Of a stretch of 64,000 bases of DNA, positions 1-12,091 are shown piece by piece. Numbering within the stretch: position 1 is the stretch's first letter; every line of letters starts with the position of its first letter. The translations under genes and the position numbers were made by a program. Source of the DNA: Bacillota bacterium (GTDB taxonomy: Bacteria > Bacillota > Clostridia > Acetivibrionales > DSM-1351). The stretch lies in assembly GCA_023431385.1 (NCBI GenBank), contig JAEYWA010000153.1, positions 7,272-71,271 on the forward strand, read 5' to 3'. The notes beneath the pieces are model-generated. The model was given only the letters and a program-made list of their open reading frames with translations, was not told the DNA's origin and did not search any database.

Positions 1-166
1 ATTTCAACATTACAAAATATTCGTTCAGACTACTGATTTCAAGAAGTTCGGCACGTTTTTCAATTCTCTTTTGTACAAAATACTTCTTATTAATCTCATA
101 ATGAATTCCAGTTTTTTTGTAAATCAATTTTACAAACTTATCATATAATTCGTCTGTTAGTATCAT
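1..166 (-). CDS. cheR: CheR chemotaxis methyltransferase, N-terminal fragment; the gene continues past the left edge
   Basis: Not in the ORF track because it is truncated. Minus-strand translation from ATG 166..164 gives MILTDELYDKFVKLIYKKTGIHYEINKKYFVQKRIEKRAELLEISSLNEYFVMLK, which fits the CheR N-terminal helical domain pattern. Its start overlaps the stop of the HEAT gene as ATGA. Confidence 0.7.
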   Translation of the reverse strand, partial: MILTDELYDKFVKLIYKKTGIHYEINKKYFVQKRIEKRAELLEISSLNEYFVMLK

Positions 167-2082
167 CTTGCCACCTCTGTCTTCAGCAAGGCTTCTTTGG
201 CTGCTTCCCTCACCTCTTCGACCTGATCCTCCAATAATCCCTGCAAAACAGTATCTGCATTACTACTCCCGAACAAGCCCAATGACCTAACGGCTGCAAT
301 TCTTGTTAAGGTTTCCTGGCTGCCTGCAGCAGTAACTACAATATTAAATGCAATGTCACTTTGAAATTTATATAAGTTTGAAATAATGTCCATCCTGTTA
401 ACGGTATTTGATTCATTGTGATACAATTTCTCTAACAAATTCAGGCTTCTGACATCAGGTATTTTAATTAGAGCTTTTATTGCTTTTCTCCTGACCACAG
501 GAGACGGGTCGTTAATCATTGTATTCATAAAGCTAAAAAACTCTCCCTCTGAAGAGTACTCAACTATACTTATCAATCCGGCACGGACACCCTCATTTAT
601 ACTGTCCATCCTGGTATTAATGTGTTTCCAGCCATATACAGTGTTCAGTCTGAAGAGAGCTTCCAGAGCTTCCATACCTTCTTCTCCCGGATTACGCCCA
701 ACAATCTCTTCAAGCAATTCAAGGCTTATTTTTCCATTATATAAAACAAGCTTACGGACTACGGCTTTTCTTACTTTTTTGTTTGGGTGCTCCAGCTTCA
801 TCAGAAGAAAGTCAATATTCGGTGTCCCACTTGCACACTTGCTCTCAACAGAAGCAAGCTCTGCTTCTTCACTAAAGTCTGTCAGACTTTCAAGAAGGTG
901 TGAGTTATTATACGAAGTAATTTCAGCAACAATTCCTATAGCCTGACTAGACACATCTCTGTCTTGCGAGCTGCACAGTTTCTCAACAATAAAGTTAAAG
1001 CCCTCAATTTCTTTTTTGTATATAAGCCTTAATCCCATCAATATCAATTCAGGTTCCTTGCACTCCAGTAGTTCATTAATAAATGAAGGCGGAATACTGT
1101 CCAGCTTATACAAGAGATCACTGAGGTTTTCTATGAAGAACTCCTCTCCCTTGTTTAAATCATATATTTCTATAATGTGATGGAGGAAGAAATTCATCTG
1201 TAAATTAACAAAGGCATTTATCGAAACAAGTATATTCTCTGAATCCTTGTAGTCCCAATGCTCTCTGAAAAATCCTTTAATTTCTTCAAATTCACTTTCA
1301 GGGAGACTGAATATACTATTATTTACGATTAGGCTGCTTAACCCAAAGATCATGTTTTCATCACTAATACAAAAATTCTTTGAATATGTTTGAAGTATTC
1401 GGATAATATCTGGATATGATCCGATAGATCCTAATGATCTTACAAATGTATTCATTAAGATATTTTTTTCTACAGCAGAAACATTCATTGAAAATATTTT
1501 ATCTGCAATGACTTCTGATACTTCTTTTGTACCTAGACTTTCAAAAGTACTTAAAAGTGAGTTTATAACCCAGACACTGCTTGTGTCATTAAGCATATCC
1601 AGTAACTTACCTTCAGCCTCCTTGTATGCTTGCTCAGCAATAACTTCCAGAGCTGCTTCCACAACATTTTCATCCGAATCGTCCAAAGCCGAAAGTGCAA
1701 TTTCACAACTGTTTTTCCCCTTGATGTATTTAAGTGCATCCAATGAGAATTTTCGAATATTCCTATCTTTGTCGCACAACTTCATTTTTAGAGATGGTAA
1801 AGCCTTTTCATCTAATATAACCAGCAGCTCTATTGCTAAATTTCTTATGTAGGCATCATCTGAATAAAATAGATCAGTAACAAGTTCAGCAGTTCTTTCA
1901 AGTTTTACACGACTAATTTTCTTCGCAAGCTTCTCCTGCTTATATCTCTCCTTTTCTGTTGTAAGACAATGAATAAGAACCTCCATGTCCTGATTATTAT
2001 TTTCACCATCAAATCCCACAGCAAGTCTGTCAATAATAGTAGTTAGCTCCTGTCCGGCAAATATTTCTTCTCTATTCGTCAT
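163..2082 (-). CDS. HEAT/PBS-lyase-type repeat protein
   Basis: Repeated HEAT-like units: DKDRNIRKFSLDALKYI, DDSDENVVEAALEVI, HPNKKVRKAVVRKL, NDPSPVVRRKAIKAL, EDQVEEVREAAKEAL. The start is trimmed from 2241 to ATG 2082 (MTNREEIF). The longer ORF would overlap the upstream gene by 170 nt; the trimmed one overlaps by 11 nt. Confidence 0.7.
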   Translation of the reverse strand: MTNREEIFAGQELTTIIDRLAVGFDGENNNQDMEVLIHCLTTEKERYKQEKLAKKISRVKLERTAELVTDLFYSDDAYIRNLAIELLVILDEKALPSLKMKLCDKDRNIRKFSLDALKYIKGKNSCEIALSALDDSDENVVEAALEVIAEQAYKEAEGKLLDMLNDTSSVWVINSLLSTFESLGTKEVSEVIADKIFSMNVSAVEKNILMNTFVRSLGSIGSYPDIIRILQTYSKNFCISDENMIFGLSSLIVNNSIFSLPESEFEEIKGFFREHWDYKDSENILVSINAFVNLQMNFFLHHIIEIYDLNKGEEFFIENLSDLLYKLDSIPPSFINELLECKEPELILMGLRLIYKKEIEGFNFIVEKLCSSQDRDVSSQAIGIVAEITSYNNSHLLESLTDFSEEAELASVESKCASGTPNIDFLLMKLEHPNKKVRKAVVRKLVLYNGKISLELLEEIVGRNPGEEGMEALEALFRLNTVYGWKHINTRMDSINEGVRAGLISIVEYSSEGEFFSFMNTMINDPSPVVRRKAIKALIKIPDVRSLNLLEKLYHNESNTVNRMDIISNLYKFQSDIAFNIVVTAAGSQETLTRIAAVRSLGLFGSSNADTVLQGLLEDQVEEVREAAKEALLKTEVAR

Positions 2083-3280
2083 CAAATAACACTTCCTTTG
2101 CAACTTTAATAAGTTTCTGAAAGCATTCATCGGATCGAAATACTTCCCGAACCGCTTCCATTTCGTTTCTATAAACCTTAAATTCTTCAACAGCCCGGAT
2201 AGAATCAAAAATATTGGTAATCCTTCTATCGTATAGGCCACCCACTATGATTGACATCTCAATATTGTCTATTGATAATTGCCTCTTTAACTCTATTAAT
2301 TCCTTTATTTCGTTTTCATGAATAATAATCAATTGGCTGGTATCAATGAAAACCATCAAGGTTATTGCCTTTTTGACAGAGTTGACAAACGTCTTCATCT
2401 GATTAGTGAATCCATCCTTTTCCGGCCTAAAAGTTCTTATCAGGTATTTGCTAAATACCCCGTACAAGTCCTGAGTAATTGTGGTACATCTTGTACTATT
2501 TGCCCCTCCATTACTCAGATAAACGTCGTTACACTTTAATTTACTCCTGGATAAATCTACTACATTGATCCTTTCTATATAGATAATATCAAAGCAGGTA
2601 TACAGTTCAGTTTTCTCCATATCAGTACTTATGATAATATCCAGAGTTTTCATTTCGATATCAACTGAAGTATCTTTAAAATATTGATCGTCTACACTGG
2701 AATATGTAAGGGAACCGATTTCTTCAACATTTTTTAAAATCATCATGAAAACTGGAGATACCATTGGAGCATCCTCCTCAAGGAAAAAGGATATATAAAA
2801 CTTGTTTTTTCCTTTATTCCTTTGATTTAGGAGTGAAGCTACAAGTCCAACCTCAGTTTGTTCTACTACTGATTTTTCCTGCTTACTTTTGTTAGCTTTA
2901 ATAAGCCCCTCAATGGTATCACTAATTCTGTATGCAGCACTGTCCAGACTTTCCTTAAGTTCAAGGGAACATGTCCCACTTTTATTATCCAGCATCTTTT
3001 TAACGGTATCCAAGCCCTCAAAGCATGTCGAAACTATACTTTGGTCAAACAGAATATAACCATTCCTTGCGTAATCAAGCATATCCTCTATCTTATGCAT
3101 CAAGTTTCCGATATCATCAAATCCAATCACATGGGAAGAGCCTTTAATGGTATGTGCTATTCGAAACAATTCATTTATTTCTACAGAAGAGTATTCTTTT
3201 TCAAGCCTTATGATACAATCTTCCGCCTTTTGCATTAATTCATCGGCTTCTTCCGTGTAAGCCCGAAGCATAGCATCCAT
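2072..3280 (-). CDS. Orphan Hpt (CheA-P1-like) protein with an uncharacterised middle region and a STAS-like C-terminal region
   Basis: The N-terminus LFRIAHTIKGSSHVIGFDDIGNLMHKIEDMLD is the Hpt/P1 phospho-His motif (HxxKG). There is no dimerisation, HATPase or P5 domain. The C-terminal ~110 aa (ITLMVFIDTSQLIIIHENEIKELIELKRQLSIDNIEMSIIVGG...IRAVEEFKVYRNEMEAV) resemble a STAS fold by eye. The start is probably ATG 3280, with an AAAGGTGG Shine-Dalgarno sequence 7 nt upstream; GTG 3292 is the alternative. Confidence 0.65.
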   Translation of the reverse strand: MDAMLRAYTEEADELMQKAEDCIIRLEKEYSSVEINELFRIAHTIKGSSHVIGFDDIGNLMHKIEDMLDYARNGYILFDQSIVSTCFEGLDTVKKMLDNKSGTCSLELKESLDSAAYRISDTIEGLIKANKSKQEKSVVEQTEVGLVASLLNQRNKGKNKFYISFFLEEDAPMVSPVFMMILKNVEEIGSLTYSSVDDQYFKDTSVDIEMKTLDIIISTDMEKTELYTCFDIIYIERINVVDLSRSKLKCNDVYLSNGGANSTRCTTITQDLYGVFSKYLIRTFRPEKDGFTNQMKTFVNSVKKAITLMVFIDTSQLIIIHENEIKELIELKRQLSIDNIEMSIIVGGLYDRRITNIFDSIRAVEEFKVYRNEMEAVREVFRSDECFQKLIKVAKEVLFDDE

Positions 3281-3294
3281 AATAACTACCACCT

Positions 3295-3705
3295 TTACTT
3301 AACCATCTGTGTAATAGACTCTCTCCATCTCTCAAGCTTTTTGATTGAATAGTCAATAATTTGCATCACGTGTTCAACACTTTTAAAAGGTTTTAGAATA
3401 TAGTCATTGGCCCCAAATTCCAGTGAACTTAACGTTTTATCCATGGTGGAGTAACCTGTCATCATTATGACCTGGGTAAGCGCATCATAGCTTTTAATTT
3501 CTCTCAGCAGCTCAATACCATCCATTTCAGGCATTACAATATCAGTGAGTACAATATGGTATTTGTCTTTTTTAACTTTTTCAAGGGCTTCTACTGCACT
3601 TTGTGCTGTGTCTACTGTATAGCCATCCAATTTCAGGTGTTTTTTTAAAGTACCTACTATACCCTCTTCATCATCTACGATCAGTATTTTATATTTTTGC
3701 TTCAT
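3295..3705 (-). CDS. Single-domain response regulator (REC)
   Basis: KILIVDDEEGIV...HIVLTDIVMPEMDGIELLREIK...MMTGY...KPF are the canonical receiver motifs. No output domain. Confidence 0.9.
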   Translation of the reverse strand: MKQKYKILIVDDEEGIVGTLKKHLKLDGYTVDTAQSAVEALEKVKKDKYHIVLTDIVMPEMDGIELLREIKSYDALTQVIMMTGYSTMDKTLSSLEFGANDYILKPFKSVEHVMQIIDYSIKKLERWRESITQMVK

Positions 3706-3735: not shown

Positions 3736-4740
3736 TTACAATCTTAACTGATGTTCTGGTAAAGTAATAATAAACTCTGTGCCCTGATTTACTGTACTTT
3801 TGACCTGAATATCTCCACCGTGCTCCCGGATAATTCCATAGACGATGGACAGCCCCAGTCCAGTTCCTCCAGAGTCTTGATTTGTGGTAAAGAAGGGATT
3901 AAATATATTATTTAAGTTCTTCTCATCAATCCCACATCCATTATCACGTACACTAATGAGTAATTTACTTATCCCTTCTCTCATTACGCTTATTTCTACA
4001 AACCCTGCTTTGTTCAAATCGTCAGCTTTAATGGCTTTAATAGAATTCAAAAATAAATTAATAAAAATCTGTTCCAACTGCTGTCTGGATCCATAAATGA
4101 GAAACTGGTCTTTTTCAATGTTGCTCCTTAAGCTTACTTTGTTTCTCACGAATTCATTTTTTACAAGCTTGTAAGCTTCAGTTATACAACCATATAAATC
4201 AAATGCTTCGTAAGATACCTTTTCCTGCCTTACAAAAAACTTTAAACCGCTGATAATGTCCATTATTCTGTCAGTTCCCTTATACATGGATTCAAAGGTA
4301 TCTTTAAACTCTTCAACATACGGAGTAGCATCATCACTTATCAATAAACCGTTTTTCCACATTATATTCAAATACTTTTGAAGCAGCTCAATATTTGCTC
4401 TAATATAAGTAGTAGGATTATTAATCTCATGAGCTACACCTGCTACCAGTTGCCCCAAAGAGGCCATTTTGTCAGCCTGGATTAATGCTTGCTCCTGTAC
4501 CTTGATTTTCTCTACCTGTTCCCTATTTGATTTCTTCAATTTTTCAAGAAATTCGGTCTTTTGCTTATCATTTATCAAAAGCTCATTGCTATTTTTCTCA
4601 ATCTCCTGTAAAAGAGCGAGAACCCCGGTGTTGGTTTCTAATAACTCTTCTATTAGTCCCTTAACCTCTTTTTTAAGATTCTCATTTTCTTTTTGTAAAT
4701 TACAAAAAAGCAGGTAGTAAAGCATATGTTCTCCATTCAT
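3736..4740 (-). CDS. Cytoplasmic sensor histidine kinase (coiled-coil N-terminus, HisKA, HATPase_c)
   Basis: H-box LVAGVAHEINNPTTYI, N-box FINLFLNSIKA, G-boxes RDNGCGID and GGTGLGLSIV. No hydrophobic transmembrane segment. Confidence 0.9.
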   Translation of the reverse strand: MNGEHMLYYLLFCNLQKENENLKKEVKGLIEELLETNTGVLALLQEIEKNSNELLINDKQKTEFLEKLKKSNREQVEKIKVQEQALIQADKMASLGQLVAGVAHEINNPTTYIRANIELLQKYLNIMWKNGLLISDDATPYVEEFKDTFESMYKGTDRIMDIISGLKFFVRQEKVSYEAFDLYGCITEAYKLVKNEFVRNKVSLRSNIEKDQFLIYGSRQQLEQIFINLFLNSIKAIKADDLNKAGFVEISVMREGISKLLISVRDNGCGIDEKNLNNIFNPFFTTNQDSGGTGLGLSIVYGIIREHGGDIQVKSTVNQGTEFIITLPEHQLRL

Positions 4741-4751
4741 AGATTCACCAC

Positions 4752-5786
4752 TTACAGAACTGCGACTAAAATTGTCGCATCATCGTTATGTCTCTCATAC
4801 TCGTTAAAAACCATATTACATAATAGCGATGGGCTTTTCGCGACCCCTTCAGCGTAATTTTCAACTTCCCATTTTGAGGTTATGCCATCAGAACACAGTA
4901 CTAACATATCCCCGTTACTAAAAATGTGTCTTCTGGCTTTACAGCTTCCACTGTATGCTCCAACATAACCGTTATATGACAGCAGTTTCACTGTTGAACC
5001 TGCCGTTATATGCCTGCAATCAATATTACCAATGGATATCATTTCAAATTCATTTGTGAATTTGTATATTATAAATAGAGCTATTACCGCTCCTCGAGTA
5101 TTCTTCAAGGCAGTGTTTGTTTGTTTAATAATATCTTCAATAGAATTCTGTGTATTTTCTTCAATTATTTTTACTGCACGGCTGGCGGCTTCATGTGCTT
5201 CCATTCCATGACCCAATCCATCAACTACGGCAATAATATCCCTATCCTCAAAGTTCCTTATATAATAACAATCACCGTTCACTAAAAAGCCTGTATAGGG
5301 TCTGCTTATCACACTGACTTTTATTTCTGAACTACCTATTCCTGAGGTATCAGTTAATGCCATGCTCCATAGCCTAATTGTTAACGTCGTTTCCACCGGC
5401 ATCCCTTTTTTTATAACATTTTCAGTATTTGATCTAATCTCAAAAAAGTCACTAAAGCTATTTATTGTTCCAAATCCATCATCAATTGTTCCATTAATGG
5501 ATGCGCCATCTTTCTGCCCCTCATTAATGTCTTCTTTTCCTTGAACCTTATCCTCAGAAATGATTTCGATTCCAACCCTGTTGTCGGCAGTAATCTGAAA
5601 AAACCTGATCTTCCCATTTATAGATTTATGTTTAACAATATTACTGCAAAGTTCACTTATAACAATAGAAGTCTCTGTTATTTCCTTATTGGAAAACTTA
5701 AGCGATTTCATCATATCCGCTATTTGCCTTCTTATAAATCCAGTGTCATAAGTGCCCCGCACTTCATATTCGAAAATAAGGTTCAC
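4752..5786 (-). CDS. Fusion of an RsbW/RsbT-like HATPase domain and a PP2C (SpoIIE-type) phosphatase; RsbX/RsbU-position protein
   Basis: N-terminus ETSIVISELCSNIVKHKS (anti-sigma-kinase type HATPase). C-terminus GDCYYI...AVVDGLGHGMEAHEAAS...VLCSDGI...DDATILVAVL (PP2C metal-binding Asp motifs). It starts 4 nt after the rsbT stop. Confidence 0.8.
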   Translation of the reverse strand: MNLIFEYEVRGTYDTGFIRRQIADMMKSLKFSNKEITETSIVISELCSNIVKHKSINGKIRFFQITADNRVGIEIISEDKVQGKEDINEGQKDGASINGTIDDGFGTINSFSDFFEIRSNTENVIKKGMPVETTLTIRLWSMALTDTSGIGSSEIKVSVISRPYTGFLVNGDCYYIRNFEDRDIIAVVDGLGHGMEAHEAASRAVKIIEENTQNSIEDIIKQTNTALKNTRGAVIALFIIYKFTNEFEMISIGNIDCRHITAGSTVKLLSYNGYVGAYSGSCKARRHIFSNGDMLVLCSDGITSKWEVENYAEGVAKSPSLLCNMVFNEYERHNDDATILVAVL

Positions 5787-5790
5787 CTCC

Positions 5791-6237
5791 TTAAAGCCAC
5801 TTCTTGATTATAATTTTTGTTCCCTTGTCTGTTTGTGAAGTAATGCTGAAATCATCCATTAGTCTTTTGCTTCCCGGAAGTCCCAGACCCATTCCCTTAC
5901 CTGTAGTAAAACCTTCCTCCATGGCTTTATCAATATCCGGGATTCCAGGACCCTTATCCTCAAAGGTAATCATTATGCCGCGTTTTGTGTCACTGGATAC
6001 ATCCTCAATAATGACACAACCGGTTGAAGCATATACATAAATGTTCCTTGACAGTTCACTGACAGCAGTAATAATCCTTGTCTGGTCTGTTATACTAAAA
6101 TTCATGTTCCTTGCTGCTTCGCGCGCTCGTTGCCTGGCTGTCACGATATCCTTTTCATCTTTTATGTGGATTTCAAATAATTTCAATTTATTCCACTCCC
6201 TATTCCAGGTCTTCAGCACATATTTCTTCAAATCCAC
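5791..6237 (-). CDS. rsbT: RsbT-like stressosome serine kinase / switch protein
   Basis: ARQRAREAARNMNF...AVSELSRNIYVYA...FEDKGPGIPDID...GKGMGLGLPGSKRLMD. Small HATPase of the RsbT type, directly after rsbS. The GTG start at 6237 overlaps the rsbS 3' end, so the exact start is uncertain. Confidence 0.8.
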   Translation of the reverse strand: MDLKKYVLKTWNREWNKLKLFEIHIKDEKDIVTARQRAREAARNMNFSITDQTRIITAVSELSRNIYVYASTGCVIIEDVSSDTKRGIMITFEDKGPGIPDIDKAMEEGFTTGKGMGLGLPGSKRLMDDFSITSQTDKGTKIIIKKWL

Positions 6238-6595
6238 TGGCTTTTACATGATCTTCAAGTATTTTAATCCCTATATCAGCATTTAACGCAATTTCTACAC
6301 CCTGAATATCCAGTCCTAACTCTTCCAGGGTTATGGCAACGTGTGGCTTCATACCGGTTAACACGGCTTTTGCCCCTAAAAGCTGTACCATTTTTACCGT
6401 TTCGGAAATAACCCTTCCCAGATAGGAATCGATAATGTCCAGCAGAGAAATGTTAAGAAGTACTCCCTTGGCACCAGTTTCATATATCTTGTCAAGAATA
6501 CTCTGCTGAAGCGACAGAGCCATATTGTCATTAATATCTCCCTGAAGAGAGACTATCAATATTTTATTCATTAAAATCATAGGGATACTGTCCAT
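6200..6595 (-). CDS. rsbS: RsbS-like single-STAS stressosome scaffold
   Basis: ILIVSLQGDINDNMALSLQQSIL...GVLLNISLLDIIDSYLGRV...LLGAKAVLTGMKPHVAITLEELG. STAS domain with the conserved D-S phospho-site context. Confidence 0.85.
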   Translation of the reverse strand: MDSIPMILMNKILIVSLQGDINDNMALSLQQSILDKIYETGAKGVLLNISLLDIIDSYLGRVISETVKMVQLLGAKAVLTGMKPHVAITLEELGLDIQGVEIALNADIGIKILEDHVKASGFEEICAEDLE

Positions 6596-6618
6596 TTTTA
6601 ATGCTCCATTCCATTTAG

Positions 6619-7482
6619 TTACTTTACCAGCCTGACGGCCTTAAATCCTGCCATCTCCATAGCCAGCTTTATACCATCGGCCATCACTGCTCTGGTGGTA
6701 ATACAAGACAGATCTACTCCGAGATGAACCATGGTTTGAGCAATCACAGGACTGATTCCGGTAATAATTAGCTCCGCTCCAAGGAGCTTTGTGGCACTAG
6801 CTGTTTTCAATAAATGATTTGCCACCAGTGTATCCACGGTAGGGATCCTGGTTATATCAACTATTGCAACCTTTGACGAAGTAGAAACAATCATTTCCAG
6901 TAGCTTTTCCATGATCATCTGTATTCTTTTACTGTCCAGAGTACCAATCAAGGGTATGGCTAAAATCCTTTCCCAGACCTGTATTATAGGTGCAGATAAT
7001 TCAACCATGTCCTGTTGCTGACGGATGATAATTTTTTCACGTTCTCTAACATACATATCGAAAGTATATAAACCCATTCTGTCCAAAATTTCTGAGATTC
7101 TGAAAGCTTCTCTGCTTAAGTTTAGATAGTCAGCGTAGCCGATTTTACTAAGCTCATCGAATATTATCTTTTTCAAAGAAAATATGAAAGTGCTGACTTC
7201 TACCTGGTTCAATCCTTTAGCTACCGCAATTTTGGAGTAGTCATCCAGATTTTTTTTCGCATCGCTTAGTTCCGGTACCCTCAAAGAAAGGTCCCCTTCG
7301 TACTCAATCAGCATTAAAAATGTATGAATAATCTTATTACACAGGCTGGCTACTTCACTTTCGGTAAACAATTCATTTATATTAAGTGACTTGTTTTGGA
7401 TAGTATCAATCCAAATGCCAGCTAGGTCATCCTTTATCTGAAATAGAATTTCATTAGTTTTACTGATAGTTGAATTATTCAT
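6619..7482 (-). CDS. rsbR: RsbR-like stressosome sensor (N-terminal helical sensor domain plus C-terminal STAS)
   Basis: The C-terminus ELSAPIIQVWERILAIPLIGTLDSKRIQMIMEKLLE...VAIVDITRIPTVDTLVANHLL...GAELIITGISPVIAQTMVHLG is the RsbR STAS signature, including the VDT phospho-site. The ~150-aa N-terminal helical domain is consistent with an RsbR_N (globin-like) fold. Confidence 0.85.
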   Translation of the reverse strand: MNNSTISKTNEILFQIKDDLAGIWIDTIQNKSLNINELFTESEVASLCNKIIHTFLMLIEYEGDLSLRVPELSDAKKNLDDYSKIAVAKGLNQVEVSTFIFSLKKIIFDELSKIGYADYLNLSREAFRISEILDRMGLYTFDMYVREREKIIIRQQQDMVELSAPIIQVWERILAIPLIGTLDSKRIQMIMEKLLEMIVSTSSKVAIVDITRIPTVDTLVANHLLKTASATKLLGAELIITGISPVIAQTMVHLGVDLSCITTRAVMADGIKLAMEMAGFKAVRLVK

Positions 7483-7490
7483 ATGTCCTC

Positions 7491-8585
7491 CTATTTTCTT
7501 ACCGCTTTTGTTATGGCATCCGCTATTCTATAAGAAGGTACTACTATTTCTGCACCACCTCTTTCTATAGCTTCTCTTGGCATACCGAAAACCACTGCAG
7601 TGGACTCATCCTCAGCAATGGTCACACCGCCTGCTTTTCTTATTTTTACCATAGCGTCAGCCCCGTCGTCACCCATACCCGTCATAAGAACTCCAATAAC
7701 GTTCGGCCCTCCGAAAGTATCCAGTACAGACTCCATTGTTACATTTACAGAGGGCATAAAAACTGTTTTAGGACTACTGGGAAGCCTTATTATTCCACCT
7801 TCTCCGCGTACTACCAACTGGTATCCTCCTGGTGCCAGAAATCCCCTTCCATTATGCAGAACATCTCCAGCTTCCGCTTCTTTTACAGGAATCCGACATG
7901 CGGCATTCAGCCTTTTTGAAAAGGATGACGTAAATGATGGCGGCATGTGTTGAATAATTATTACCGCCGCTTTCAAGTCGTGCGGAAGCATAGGAAGCAC
8001 TTCCATAAGAGTACCCGGTCCACCGGTAGAAATACCTATAACCACCACCTTTGTTAATTCACTGCCCTTCTGCGGTCTCCTCGTTTTGAGAGGTTCTGCT
8101 ATCCTGGGTGACAAATAATTGCTACGTCTTGCTACTCTATCTCTAATATTTTTTTTGTTTACACTTTTATAAGCCAGCTTAACCTTTTGTATGATTTCTC
8201 TTCCTACTACGTGCAGATTGGAGGAAACAGTTCCTGATGGCTTTGTGACATAATCAAAAGCCCCCAACTCCAATGCCTCAAAGGTGGTCAATGCTCCTTC
8301 TGCAGTGAGTGAGCTTATCATCAGAACAGGGGTTTCTGGATACTCACTCAATATGTATTGCAAGGAAGTTAATCCATCCATCACAGGCATGTTGATATCC
8401 ATTGTAACTACATCCGGTTTTAAATCCTGCACTTTTTCAATTGCATCCTGTCCGTCTCTGGCTGTTCCCACCACCTCAAGACCTGAATCAGTCATGATTA
8501 TTTCCTTAATGGACTTTCGCATTAAAGCAGAATCATCTACAATCAGTACTTTTATTTTTTCGCTCACAAAACTCACCTGCCGCAT
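7491..8585 (-). CDS. cheB: CheB protein-glutamate methylesterase (REC plus methylesterase)
   Basis: KVLIVDDSALMRK...VVTMDINMPVMDGL (REC); VVIGISTGGPGTL, IIQHMPP, MTGMGDDGA (Ser-His-Asp esterase motifs). The start could instead be GTG 8567, preceded by AGGTGA. Confidence 0.9.
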   Translation of the reverse strand: MRQVSFVSEKIKVLIVDDSALMRKSIKEIIMTDSGLEVVGTARDGQDAIEKVQDLKPDVVTMDINMPVMDGLTSLQYILSEYPETPVLMISSLTAEGALTTFEALELGAFDYVTKPSGTVSSNLHVVGREIIQKVKLAYKSVNKKNIRDRVARRSNYLSPRIAEPLKTRRPQKGSELTKVVVIGISTGGPGTLMEVLPMLPHDLKAAVIIIQHMPPSFTSSFSKRLNAACRIPVKEAEAGDVLHNGRGFLAPGGYQLVVRGEGGIIRLPSSPKTVFMPSVNVTMESVLDTFGGPNVIGVLMTGMGDDGADAMVKIRKAGGVTIAEDESTAVVFGMPREAIERGGAEIVVPSYRIADAITKAVRK

Positions 8586-8657: not shown

Positions 8658-10133
8658 TTAACTATTACTTAATACTTTACCTATATCCAGAATCAGAATC
8701 ATTCTCTTACCGCCATCCAGCTTTCCAACACTCTCTACATAATCACTGTCAATCCCGCTGCTTAAAATGTCCGGAGGTGCCTGAATCAATGTTTTTTCAA
8801 ACCGTAGTACTTCTGAAACAGAATCAACAATTATACCTGTCCTCTTTCCACTGAAATCGACGATAATAATCCTTGTAGCGTCGGTCACCTGCTTTTCTGC
8901 GAGATTAAAAAGCCTTCTCAAATCCAGCGCAGGAATTACATTTCCTCTCAGGTTGACAATGCCTTCAATATAATAGGGGGCTCTGGGTATCTTGGTAACC
9001 TCTGTCATTCTATTAATCTCCTGTACATTAGCTATTTTAATGCCATACTCTTCCATGTCAATTTTAAAGGTCACCAACTGCTCTTCGTCAAGAATCTGGA
9101 CGGTTATACTTTTTTCCTCAGCCTGTTCTTCACAGGTCTCACTATTGCCTGTTATTGCACTTATCTCATCAGCGGATATCAGCTTTGCAGGTTCAAGCAA
9201 AAGAATCATTCTTTTTCCATTATTGAGCTTAGCTACACCCTTAAGCTGCTCCCCGCTGTGCTTAGAGAATTTTGGCGGAGGCTGAATAATACTTGTCTGT
9301 ACCCTTAGAACTTCTGAAATTTTATCCACCATAATTCCAGCAGTGAAGCTGCCCATGTCAACTACAAGAATTCTCGTATGGTCATCGATTTCCTTATAGT
9401 CCATTCCGAAGTAAGTCCTTAAGTTTATTATTGGGAGCAGGTTATTACGTATGGATACTACTCCCTCAATATGAGCCTCACAATTTGGAACTTTAACTAT
9501 TTGTGGAATACGGATGATTTCTTTTACATCCATAATCCCAATGGCATATTCTTCATTATTAAGAAGAAATGAAACCAACTGTTCTTCATCAATAGACTCT
9601 GTTATCGCACTGCTTATTATAGATTCTAATTTCTGTTTATCAGCATTTCGTCCGTTTAGTTTCTCTTTTCCGATTGTATTGACCTTCAAGGCCTTTACAA
9701 CATCTAAAAGCATGACCAACCTATTTCCATTGTCCAGCTTAACAACACCATTCAAATAATCTGAATCCACATTTTTTACTATCTGTGGTGGTTCCTCAAT
9801 GTCAGCTGTACTGACTCGCATTACTTCCGATACCCTGTCTACAATAACTCCAGTAGCCTTACCTTCAACATCTATGACCAGAACCCTGCTGTTTTCATCC
9901 TTAATTTTCCTTTCTAAATTAAACCGGGTTCTTCCATCAATAATAGGCAGGACATTTCCCCTTAAATTGCAGGCACCCTCCACATACGCTGGAGCATTCG
10001 GAACCTTTGTTATTTCAGGAACTCTGATAATTTCCTTAACATCCATGATATCAGCCCCGAATTCATCATCACCAAGAAGGAAGGTAACCAACTGGCGCTC
10101 TGTAAGGCCGGTATTATTTATACCAGTTGCCAT
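8658..10133 (-). CDS. Triple-CheW-domain coupling protein
   Basis: Three full CheW repeats (about aa 10-150, 185-325, 348-490). Each begins with QLVTF/QLVSF...EYAIGI/EFGADI...V.EI.R and ends with G(K/N)R.(I/V).LL(D/E). Confidence 0.85.
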   Translation of the reverse strand: MATGINNTGLTERQLVTFLLGDDEFGADIMDVKEIIRVPEITKVPNAPAYVEGACNLRGNVLPIIDGRTRFNLERKIKDENSRVLVIDVEGKATGVIVDRVSEVMRVSTADIEEPPQIVKNVDSDYLNGVVKLDNGNRLVMLLDVVKALKVNTIGKEKLNGRNADKQKLESIISSAITESIDEEQLVSFLLNNEEYAIGIMDVKEIIRIPQIVKVPNCEAHIEGVVSIRNNLLPIINLRTYFGMDYKEIDDHTRILVVDMGSFTAGIMVDKISEVLRVQTSIIQPPPKFSKHSGEQLKGVAKLNNGKRMILLLEPAKLISADEISAITGNSETCEEQAEEKSITVQILDEEQLVTFKIDMEEYGIKIANVQEINRMTEVTKIPRAPYYIEGIVNLRGNVIPALDLRRLFNLAEKQVTDATRIIIVDFSGKRTGIIVDSVSEVLRFEKTLIQAPPDILSSGIDSDYVESVGKLDGGKRMILILDIGKVLSNS

Positions 10134-10150: not shown

Positions 10151-12091
10151 TTACATATTCTGAAGTTCATCGGCCAATCCTGATATCTCTTCGATGGCTT
10201 CTGCAAGTTCCTGCATACCTTTTGCCTGTTCAGAGGCTGCGGTTGATGCCTGTTGTGCTCCGCTGCTGGCCTCCTGGGCGGCAGTAGCAATTTGGTCAAC
10301 ACCCTTCCTTGCCTGCTCAAGGGCTATCATAGACTCTTCTGAACCCCTCTGAATTTCTTTTGCACCTGATAGTATTTTAATCATATTCTCTTCAATTACA
10401 TTCAGGTTGTGAGTAGTCTTTTTGGCCTTCTCAACTTCGGCAAAGGAGGTTTTGCTGGAAATATCCGTATCAGCCGATACCCTTTGGATTTGGTTCTGTA
10501 TACCTCTAACAAGGTCTTTTATCTTATCTGTATTTTCTGCCGACTCATTGGCAAGTGCCCTAATATCTCCTGCAACCACTGAGAATCCTCTTCCAAATTC
10601 TCCTGCCCTGGCAGCTTCTATAGAACCATTAACAGCCAGCATATTAGTTTGTATAGTGACATTCACAATGGCATCTACGATTTTATCGATTCTTCTTGTA
10701 GTCTCTTCAAGACTCTTTATGTTCCTTGCCGCTACAACACTGGCTTCAGCTGAAGAAGAAATTCCGGCAATCATATTATCAACAGCTATTTTATTGGCCT
10801 CCAATAACTTTTGGAGTTCCTCTATCTTATCCCCTGAGTAGCCTGACCTATCACTCATTTGTTTAGAAGCAGCAGCAAGCCTTTCTGCCAGATTTGCTGC
10901 TTTCTCAGTAAGCTCTGCCTGAGCCCTGGCACCAGAAGATATCTGCTCCATAGCTTTTAATATCTCTCCAGCTGTCGAGTTTGCCTCCTCCACATTTGCT
11001 GACAATTCTTCTGAAGCTGCCGCTAGTGACTCTGAGGATTTCTGAGCATCTGTAGATACCTTGAGGTCCTCGGCCATCTGAGCAAGATCAGCAGCACCGG
11101 CATTTAATTCGTTGAAAGCCTTATTCTGTATCTGGATGGATTTTTCTACTTCTTCAGCAGCGCTGCTCTGCTGCTCTGCTGCTGCTGCAATTTGCTCGGC
11201 AATACCAAGGAACTCACCCGCTCCTTTATTTGCATCCACTGCATTTTGTGATACCTCTGTTACATATTTTTGTACCTGTACAATCTCCTCATTGATTTTA
11301 ATCAGGTCAGCAGTAGTTCTCTTTGCTTTCTCAACTTCATCATTGGCCGCGTTGCCGGCATTTTCAATATCTACTACAACAACTTTTACATTGTTTTGTA
11401 TTTCAGTTACAAGTTCTCTTATATTCCTTGCAGATTTCTCAGAGGTTTCTGCCAGGTTTCTGACTTCATCGGCCACAACAGCAAATCCCTTACCGTGTTC
11501 GCCTGCTCTTGCTGCTTCTATGGCAGCATTAAGTGCAAGAAGATTAGTCTGGTCAGCAATTCTGACAACGGCCTGTACAATTTCTCCGATCTCATTGGAT
11601 TGCTTTTCAAGTTCTCCGACCAGTTTAACCGACTCCATATTTGTATCAGCTGACTCTTTAATTCCTTTAATCATTAACTCGATATCGTTGGATGTATTTT
11701 CTAGTAAATCCTTAGCTATATCAACTCTTTCAAGCGAATCCTTTGCGTTTATGTCAGCAACTACTGAAGCCTTGTCGATCTGGTTAATGGCAGCCCTTGA
11801 CTCTTCTGCCGCAGACGAAGCCTCACTGGCGCCCTTTGCGATTTGCTGCATAGTTGCGCCTAATTCTTCTGCAGCACTGCTGGCTTCTTCTATCCCTGAA
11901 GCCAGCTGTTCTGTAGCTACAGCTATTCTTTCAGCCAACTGCTGCTGTTTTGCCAATGTTCTAGCCCTTACCTTATCCTGCGCTTGTTTCCTCGCAAGTT
12001 CTCTCTTTCTCTCCATTTCATCTGTTGCCGATGCTAGTGCAGGTCCTTTTACACTTCTTTCGCTTGAAGGTTTTGCAAGCTTTTTTTCCAT
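10151..12091 (-). CDS. Soluble methyl-accepting chemotaxis protein with two tandem signalling (MA) domains, DosM-like
   Basis: No transmembrane segment. There are two hairpin-tip motifs exactly 300 aa apart: [35 protein letters not shown] (aa 181-215) and [35 protein letters not shown] (aa 481-515). Several methylation-site-like EE/QQ heptads are present ([27 protein letters not shown]). Confidence 0.85.

Follow-up and report, generated by a model that had tools for sequence, protein, structure and literature searches.

A CheA-derived phosphotransfer protein with a predicted divergent STAS domain in F9-like chemosensory clusters of Bacillota

Introduction

Which signalling pathway does a histidine-containing phosphotransfer (Hpt) protein serve when chemotaxis genes and a stressosome-type cassette lie in the same gene block? 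This question is raised by a gene on the minus strand (2072..3280) of a stretch of 64,000 nucleotides from a Bacillota bacterium (GTDB lineage Clostridia; Acetivibrionales; DSM-1351; assembly GCA_023431385.1, contig JAEYWA010000153.1, positions 7,272 to 71,271 of the forward strand), hereafter called the window, to which all coordinates refer unless a locus is named. The initial annotation described its product as an orphan protein with an Hpt (P1) domain, about 180 residues devoid of any recognisable motif and a STAS-like C-terminus, in which everything that normally follows P1 in CheA was absent, and it proposed docking onto the RsbR/RsbS scaffold or partner switching by RsbT.

Several of these elements have been met separately. 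STAS genes are known in F7-type chemosensory (Che) clusters (bioRxiv 10.1101/2022.03.11.484041, PMC8256260), and in Vibrio there are RsbRST modules after which a two-component system is encoded (PMC9237108, PMC4976288). Che systems of the F9 class are marked by a concatenated triple CheW and by a soluble receptor that carries two signalling domains; their function is unexplained, and the system is reported to be induced under stress or low oxygen (PMC7534058). Here we describe the window protein as a CheA-derived phosphotransfer protein, P1-P2-STAS, with a new C-terminal module, an architecture unreported in the literature searched: queries combining Hpt, STAS and chemotaxis, F9 and STAS, or stressosome and chemotaxis gave no description of such a fusion.

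Domain architecture of the P1-P2-STAS protein

Residues 1-136 (2873..3280, minus strand) form a CheA-type P1/Hpt five-helix bundle, as assigned from Pfam, NCBIfam and PDB matches and from an AlphaFold2 model. Pfam Hpt (PF01627) was matched on residues 4-97 with an E value of 2e-12 and 47.6 bits against a cut-off of 24.6, the NCBIfam CheA equivalogs matched by their first ~140-157 positions only, and the top PDB sequence matches of the N-terminus were the CheA P1 domains of T. maritima, Salmonella, E. coli and R. sphaeroides CheA3. The model has a mean predicted local distance difference test score (pLDDT) of 75.7, with domain cores at about 75-90. Its P1 helices span residues 3-136 at a pLDDT of about 80-90, and Foldseek gave template modelling (TM) scores of 0.75-0.91 between the P1 model and CheA P1 structures. 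The Hpt assignment first made for the initial ~100 residues is thus upheld by the Pfam score above cut-off and by the CheA P1 structure matches.

The predicted phospho-accepting residue is His43 (in AHTIKGSS; codon CAT at 3152..3154, minus strand), which occupies an invariant column and aligns with CheA P1. H43, K46, H62 and E65 were invariant in alignments of 21, 37 and 34 relatives, while G47 was invariant in the 21-sequence alignment and at least 90% conserved in the two others. From the alignment offset, we take H43, K46, H62 and E65 to be the counterparts of H48, K51, H67 and E70 of E. coli/Salmonella CheA. In CheA, H48 is the phospho-acceptor and K51, H67 and E70 are its supporting network. 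Judged from sequence, the P1 active site of the window protein is intact and carries a predicted phospho-His. Pfam and NCBIfam gave no match to P3, P4 or P5 in the window protein, which does not carry the four core domains by which a CheA is recognised (PMC10782961).

Residues 159-242 (2555..2806, minus strand) correspond to a P2 response-regulator-binding domain, predicted from a family profile, from Foldseek and from Pfam matches in relatives. In the window protein itself, Pfam P2 (PF07194) covered residues 161-240 with an E value of 0.0057 and 17.1 bits, below the cut-off of 23; it was matched at E < 1 in 15 of 21 relatives, and in the relative P0129 it reached 25.5 bits, above the gathering score of 23. 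When a 30-relative profile of this segment was searched against all PDB sequences, the sole real match was the P2 domain of T. maritima CheA (1u0s_A; E value of 1.4e-5, 82 of 86 residues covered). AlphaFold2 predicted a beta-alpha-beta-beta-alpha-beta order (strands 159-167, 189-194, 212-219 and 235-242, helices 174-188 and 223-229), which makes a four-stranded beta-sheet with two helices, an open-faced sandwich placed right after P1. Foldseek matched it to 1u0s_A at a TM score of 0.86, and the top match of the whole model was a CheA P1-P2 construct, 2lp4. On these profiles and the predicted fold, the middle region consists of a linker and a regulator-docking domain of the CheA P2 type. The ~180 residues regarded as lacking a motif therefore contain P2, as the 1u0s_A profile match, the Foldseek score and the Pfam match in P0129 agree, and it was wrong to consider that all that normally follows P1 in CheA is absent.

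The C-terminal part, residues about 266-399 (2084..2485, minus strand), comprises a leader helix, a divergent STAS domain and C-terminal helices according to profiles, Foldseek and the AlphaFold2 model. No Pfam STAS (PF01740) match was reported in the window protein at E <= 1, and a STAS scan of the whole genome (E <= 0.01) found RsbR, RsbS and two other genes only, not the window protein. Among relatives, PF01740 was matched at E < 1 in 8 of 21, and the homolog P0072 (50% identical) scored 25.9 bits over the equivalent residues against a gathering score of 22.6. A 36-sequence C-terminal profile compared with the PDB gave SULTR STAS as best match (2.5e-4) and then RsfB (5e-3), below which came a mycobacterial antagonist, SpoIIAA, TM1442 and YtvA. 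The AlphaFold2 model has the beta/alpha order of STAS at residues 281-381 with a pLDDT of 81-90 (strands 281-284, 309-313, 341-345 and 368-370; helices 292-301, 322-337, 351-360 and 373-381), and the Foldseek STAS matches, YtvA, TM1442, SulP/SLC26 STAS and SpoIIAA, had TM scores of 0.55-0.68. As far as family profiles and a predicted structure can tell, the C-terminus is a STAS fold, and a divergent one. Remote homology and structure prediction thus returned STAS and not another fold, and the STAS-like C-terminus proposed at the outset is confirmed by three agreeing lines, the P0072 score above Pfam gathering, the family profile against the PDB, and Foldseek.

In place of the STAS phospho-motif D-S-S/T-G, the protein has H321-E322-N323-E324 (2309..2320, minus strand), as read from the alignments and from the DNA. 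The HMMER alignment pairs D56-S57-S58-G59 of B. subtilis SpoIIAA with these four residues; in hhalign, the D-S of the window's own RsbS faces H321-E322, a comparison used for register only, the family STAS profile having a probability of 0.8% against this RsbS. At this site the window protein has neither Ser nor Thr under either choice of the canonical serine. Among 36 relatives, position 322 is Glu in 24, Ser in one and Thr in one, position 323 is Asn, Asp or Lys in 23, Ser in one and Thr in one, and position 324, the Gly of the canonical motif, is Glu or Asp in all 36. Ser at position 323 is found in the Petroclostridium ortholog. The residue opposite T205 of RsbR is presumably Ile or Leu, from a manual alignment with the B. 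subtilis RsbR sequence. Because Ser and Thr are nearly absent at positions 322 and 323 and position 324 is always acidic, the STAS domain of this family is, on sequence grounds, not built for phosphorylation at the classical sites.

Protein family and conserved gene neighbourhood

A search of 5.8 billion proteins (E <= 0.001) returned 149 relatives. In the best 120 of these 149, Hpt was the only routinely called domain, and the sources name the relatives 'Hpt domain-containing protein' or, by mistake, CheA. An exhaustive search of representatives found only ~30 clusters (50% identity) with the P1-P2-STAS architecture, the remainder sharing P1 only, and this family was found in Bacillota only. 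It falls into two length classes, a commoner one of about 480 residues and one of about 380-403 residues that includes the window protein. The 480-residue form has four additional helices between P2 and STAS (residues 257-361 of a long-form model, pLDDT 80.7). The window protein has at this place a low-confidence linker, residues 243-265 (2486..2554, minus strand; an alignment gap, with pLDDT < 50 at 247-269), which is a remnant of this module of roughly 90 residues. Foldseek with the four-helix insert of long-form relatives gave no specific structural match. The Listeria stressosome RsbR chain surfaced only at a TM score of 0.27.

The gene neighbourhood was compared by mapping 20 proteins of the window's cluster by tblastn to 26 loci with a full-length relative, that is 27 loci with the window. 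The loci belong to Clostridia and Bacilli, among them Ruminiclostridium, Petroclostridium, Lutispora, psychrophilic Clostridium, Acetobacterium, Herbinix, Paenibacillus, Aneurinibacillus and Gordoniibacillus, as well as several metagenome-assembled genomes (MAGs). In nearly every sufficiently long locus we observed the order CheY, double-domain methyl-accepting chemotaxis protein (MCP), triple CheW, CheB, a stand-alone receiver of 136 residues (REC136), P1-P2-STAS, then (HEAT), CheR, (CheY), CheA, and further on (ParA, triple CheW), with the proteins in brackets being variable. In the window, the upstream core of the same cluster, in conserved order and on the minus strand, consists of CheB (7491-8585), a triple CheW with three CheW stretches (8658-10133) and a soluble MCP with two MCPsignal stretches, a DosM-like double-tip receptor (10151-12091). 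The window begins 7271 bases into the contig, and the left part was read separately: after the HEAT gene it encodes CheR, CheY, a CheA of 743 residues, CheY, two CheX, a ParA/MinD-like ATPase and a second triple CheW. The protein can therefore not be called an orphan, a complete cheA lying just outside the window.

This CheA (L012:3983-6214, minus strand, about 1.1 kb past the left edge of the window) has the architecture P1-P1-P3-P4-P5, and each of its two P1 domains carries a phospho-His (H52 and H225). A P2 domain was sought in it and gave no match even at E <= 5; because of this, the sole P2 of the chemosensory system is that of the P1-P2-STAS protein.

The association also holds across genomes. 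The STAS family profile (E <= 1e-8) and the triple-CheW ortholog (>= 80% identity) were found in the same four of 40 related genomes, or in the same five of 41 when the window's own genome is counted. The cluster occurs in only 4 of 25 sampled species of the window's GTDB genus, and of 400 genomes sampled evenly across the phylum, one had the P1-P2-STAS protein, together with the whole cluster. Overall, the P1-P2-STAS gene is an obligate syntenic member of this cluster, which we call F9-like by its two hallmarks, the soluble receptor with a double signalling domain and the triple CheW.

The mapped loci also showed some variation. One MAG locus (L016) is rearranged, with HEAT-CheR-CheY-CheA-CheY-CheX-CheX-ParA-tripleCheW preceding CheY-REC136-P1-P2-STAS. 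In Ruminiclostridium herbifermentans (L003:14109-16327), cheA is present as two open reading frames, encoding a 342-residue Hpt protein and a 394-residue P3-P4-P5 protein, which reflects either a true splitting of CheA or the effect of a frameshift. Acetobacterium tundrae DSM 9173 has two copies of the whole cluster on different contigs (L026 and L031), each with REC136 and P1-P2-STAS; neither ParA nor a second triple CheW was seen within 5-8 kb downstream of cheA in these Acetobacterium clusters.

A distant F9-like cluster (L056), whose double-domain MCP is 64% identical to that of the window, has in the slot between cheB and cheR a protein of 579 residues (L056:15423-17162) composed of an Hpt domain, a faint P2, a helical region, a STAS-like region and a pseudo-receiver end in which the acidic pair, the phospho-Asp, the Thr and the Lys are replaced (NE, Y, K and A, respectively). 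A wider search for relatives of this protein returned itself and CheA P1 matches only. Since it occupies the cheB-cheR position, conservation of the slot extends to a locus in which the sequence itself has diverged.

REC136, the HisKA kinase and the stressosome-type cassette

REC136 (3295..3705, minus strand) is a receiver in which the DD/D/T/K residues are intact and which has an additional helix at its C-terminus. It adjoins the P1-P2-STAS gene in every locus that shows the flank, upstream of it in Clostridia and downstream in three Bacilli and in L032. In two relatives, P0129 (620 residues) and P0134 (624 residues), a receiver domain is fused to the C-terminus of P1-P2-STAS. These fused receivers are 58% and 41% identical to REC136, respectively, against at most 35% to the four other receivers of the cluster, and they share with REC136 the unusual C-terminal helix (…KKLERWRE…). 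Because of these fusions and of the invariant adjacency, REC136 and P1-P2-STAS presumably act together, as a Rosetta-stone argument on the sequences suggests.

By similarity, REC136 is nearer to PhoP/YycF (OmpR-type), Spo0F and NtrC/AtoC receivers than to CheY. Directly upstream of its gene, with 30 nt between, lies a gene for a soluble HisKA/HATPase kinase (3736..4740, minus strand), which occurs in cassette-bearing lineages only. The best NCBIfam matches were AtoS/ZraS for the kinase and the AtoC/NtrC/ZraR receivers for REC136. AtoS/ZraS kinases pair with AtoC/ZraR-type receivers, and a HisKA to REC136 pairing would be plausible in the window's lineage. Within the cluster, REC136 is older than the HisKA kinase, being present in all cassette-free loci.

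The stressosome-type cassette (4752..7482, minus strand) lies between cheB and REC136 and encodes RsbR (6619-7482), RsbS (6200-6595), RsbT (5791-6237) and a HATPase_c_2-PP2C protein (4752-5786). Rsb genes or the HisKA kinase were found in about 6 of the 27 loci, namely the window, two MAG relatives near-identical to it (L013 and L014), Petroclostridium (L033), L018 and, partially, L015. In L018 the cassette is reduced to RsbS-RsbT-HisKA, without RsbR and without the PP2C protein, while L015 is truncated by the contig end with the HisKA gene visible. A cognate Ser/Thr kinase of the GHKL type and a PP2C phosphatase thus accompany the STAS protein only in these roughly 6 of 27 loci. The cassette-bearing loci are those whose Che proteins most resemble those of the window. 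Since the cassette is limited to the closest relatives of the window, it appears to have been inserted once, between cheB and REC136, in that lineage alone.

Gene structure

The P1-P2-STAS gene (P0001) is a complete open reading frame of 402 codons, from an ATG at 3280 to a TAG at 2072 on the minus strand. A plus-strand reading of 2072-3280 was ruled out, as it is full of stops. The ribosome-binding site AAAGGTGG sits 8 nt 5' of the ATG, which follows the REC136 stop by 14 nt, and the stop overlaps by 11 nt (ATGACGAATAG) with the ATG (2082-2080) of the next gene. With this ribosome-binding site, the short 5' spacing and the 11-nt overlap, the gene is well formed and part of a compact operon on the minus strand. 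Full-length orthologs are 93, 89 and 73% identical to the window protein, and none of the public sequencing runs was listed as containing the gene.

The next gene (163..2082, minus strand) encodes a protein of 639 residues with HEAT/PBS-lyase-type repeats and was seen at 16 of the 27 loci, the window counted. To judge from the overlapping sequence, it is translationally coupled to the P1-P2-STAS gene. Its best NCBIfam match was NblB, far under the cut-off of that model.

Discussion

The P1 and P2 domains of the window protein have the same folds and the same order as in CheA (T. maritima 1tqg and 1u0s; E. coli/Salmonella 1i5n and 2lp4). The phospho-His and the supporting Lys, His and Glu are invariant, and P2 is of the T. 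maritima type. In contrast to CheA, the protein lacks the P3 dimerisation, P4 kinase and P5 CheW-like domains and has a STAS domain instead, preceded by the four-helix module in most relatives. Another parallel is R. sphaeroides CheA3 (3kyi/3kyj; PMC2817712, PMC10782961), which is likewise kinase-dead, has a CheA-type P1 and belongs to a cytoplasmic-array cluster with a ParA-like ATPase; it depends on its partner CheA4 for phosphorylation in trans and serves a specific receiver, and its P1 was among the Foldseek matches. However, CheA3 keeps degenerate P3/P4 domains and an array-docking P5, whereas the window protein ends in STAS and the cluster CheA keeps its own P1 domains.

At the level of the cluster, both hallmarks are shared with V. 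cholerae cluster I/F9 (DosM VC1403, triple CheW VC1402 and CheA1; PMC7534058). In contrast, the published accounts of the Vibrio cluster that were consulted mention no P1-P2-STAS protein. With the partner-switching STAS proteins SpoIIAA, RsbV, RsbS, RsbR and RsfB, the family shares the fold, and the 'IDxS' motif of beta3 and the alpha3 motif are recognisable. It differs from them by the fusion to P1-P2, by a Ser/Thr motif changed to x-E-x-E and by the lack of a cognate anti-sigma-type kinase in most P1-P2-STAS clusters.

Taken together, we consider it reasonably probable that P1-P2-STAS works together with REC136 as an auxiliary phosphotransfer shuttle, derived from CheA, in the F9-like system. 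In such a scheme, P2 would dock REC136 beside P1, and phosphoryl groups would move between His43 and the REC136 Asp. The kinase domain of the cluster CheA could charge P1 in trans, as CheA4 does with the P1 of R. sphaeroides CheA3, or P1 could be loaded by back-transfer from REC136. Trans-phosphorylation of CheA3-P1 is documented (PMC10782961, PMC2817712), and stand-alone Hpt genes beside cheA occur occasionally (Berry et al., PMC10782961). The STAS domain would serve as a non-phosphorylated docking module linking the P1-P2 unit to a partner. Since STAS domains classically pair with GHKL kinases, our most economical guess for this partner is a GHKL ATPase domain, for example CheA P4; RsbT could be another where it is present. 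In the window's lineage, the AtoS-like HisKA kinase would phosphorylate REC136, so that the stressosome/HisKA branch would enter the Che phosphorelay there. REC136 and P1-P2-STAS would thus probably be, in this lineage, the junction of the stressosome/HisKA input and the Che pathway.

Several points weigh against a shuttle role. The contacts between P2 and REC136, between STAS and its partner and between CheA P4 and P1 are all proposals drawn from sequence and analogy, the identity of the STAS partner is a guess, and on the sequence phosphotransfer could run either way. REC136 resembles OmpR/NtrC/Spo0F-type receivers more than CheY, and the P2 domains that have been characterised bind CheY and CheB. 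In addition, the window protein gave no Pfam STAS report and its own P2 score is below gathering, both domain calls resting on family profiles and the predicted fold.

The other readings place the protein elsewhere. In the one proposed initially, STAS joins the RsbR/RsbS core, or is bound or phosphorylated by RsbT or the HATPase-PP2C protein, and so tethers a phosphotransfer domain to the stressosome. The STAS fold is indeed genuine, the gene lies four to six genes from those of RsbT, RsbS and RsbR in a co-directional block, and the cassette and the P1-P2-STAS gene occur together in the window's nearest relatives; the absence of RsbR from the L018 cassette leaves room for another STAS partner, and Ser323 of the Petroclostridium ortholog could be counted in the same direction. 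However, about 21 of the 27 loci have P1-P2-STAS without Rsb genes, so that stressosome docking is not the ancestral or conserved role of the family; the STAS domain is older than the cassette and functions in its absence. The classical phospho-site is E-N in the window protein, Ser or Thr occurs in at most 2 of 36 relatives per position with the Gly position always acidic, and the equivalent of RsbR T205 is, in our manual alignment, presumably Ile/Leu. The family STAS profile is also far from the window's RsbS in hhalign, and the invariant neighbour and occasional fusion partner is REC136, not an Rsb protein. With Rsb/HisKA genes in about 6 of 27 loci and no classical phospho-site, neither RsbR/RsbS docking nor partner switching by RsbT is borne out as a conserved role, and we hold this reading to be quite unlikely; in single lineages, RsbT or the HATPase-PP2C protein may nevertheless interact with P1-P2-STAS. 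A related and speculative combination, which we would give a small chance, is that STAS binds GHKL domains generally, CheA P4 everywhere and, in cassette-bearing clusters, also the HATPase-PP2C protein or RsbT after its release.

A phosphate sink or phosphatase module may also be considered, in which REC136 and P1-P2-STAS drain phosphoryl groups from the CheY proteins or CheA-P by reverse transfer to His43 and sharpen signal termination. Models for this exist in the CheY sinks of S. meliloti and in the CheY6-P phosphatase activity of R. sphaeroides CheA3. The intact P1, the presence of P2 the several single-domain CheYs of the cluster and the occurrence of CheX phosphatases in some clusters only would fit a sink, and such a role has been discussed for CheA-fused receivers (PMC10782961). 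It leaves the conserved STAS domain unexplained, two CheX phosphatases are already present in the window's cluster, and no catalytic phosphatase motif was found, so we regard a sink as rather unlikely. The pseudogene alternative raised in the initial annotation, a truncated remnant of a normal cheA, would account for a similarity to CheA that is confined to the N-terminus and for the absence of P3, P4 and P5. It is refuted by conservation and by the intact cheA nearby: there are at least 149 homologs with the same architecture and without stops, the orthologs are 73-93% identical over their full length with 52 invariant columns that include the STAS part, a complete cheA lies next door, and the gene has a good ribosome-binding site and is translationally coupled to the next one. 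This possibility is hardly credible.

For annotation, the gain is that the formerly 'unknown' middle region is P2 and that the gene is to be assigned to the Che cluster instead of the Rsb module. For the biology of these bacteria, F9-type cytoplasmic arrays are a class whose architecture is solved and to which no function or output has been assigned (PMC7534058). The F9-type clusters of Bacillota have an obligatory extra pair, REC136 and P1-P2-STAS, and a dedicated branch for output or cross-talk would most obviously be sought in this pair. A stressosome and a histidine kinase have been inserted at precisely this node in the window's lineage, which makes it a natural system for the merging of stress and chemosensory signalling. 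If the GHKL-docking role of STAS were true, P1-P2-STAS would couple the stressosome physically to a cytoplasmic chemoreceptor array, with one phosphotransfer shuttle switched between a chemosensory and a stress kinase. This would be an undescribed merger of partner switching with a His-Asp phosphorelay, and the F9 class, whose function is unexplained, would gain its first output branch.

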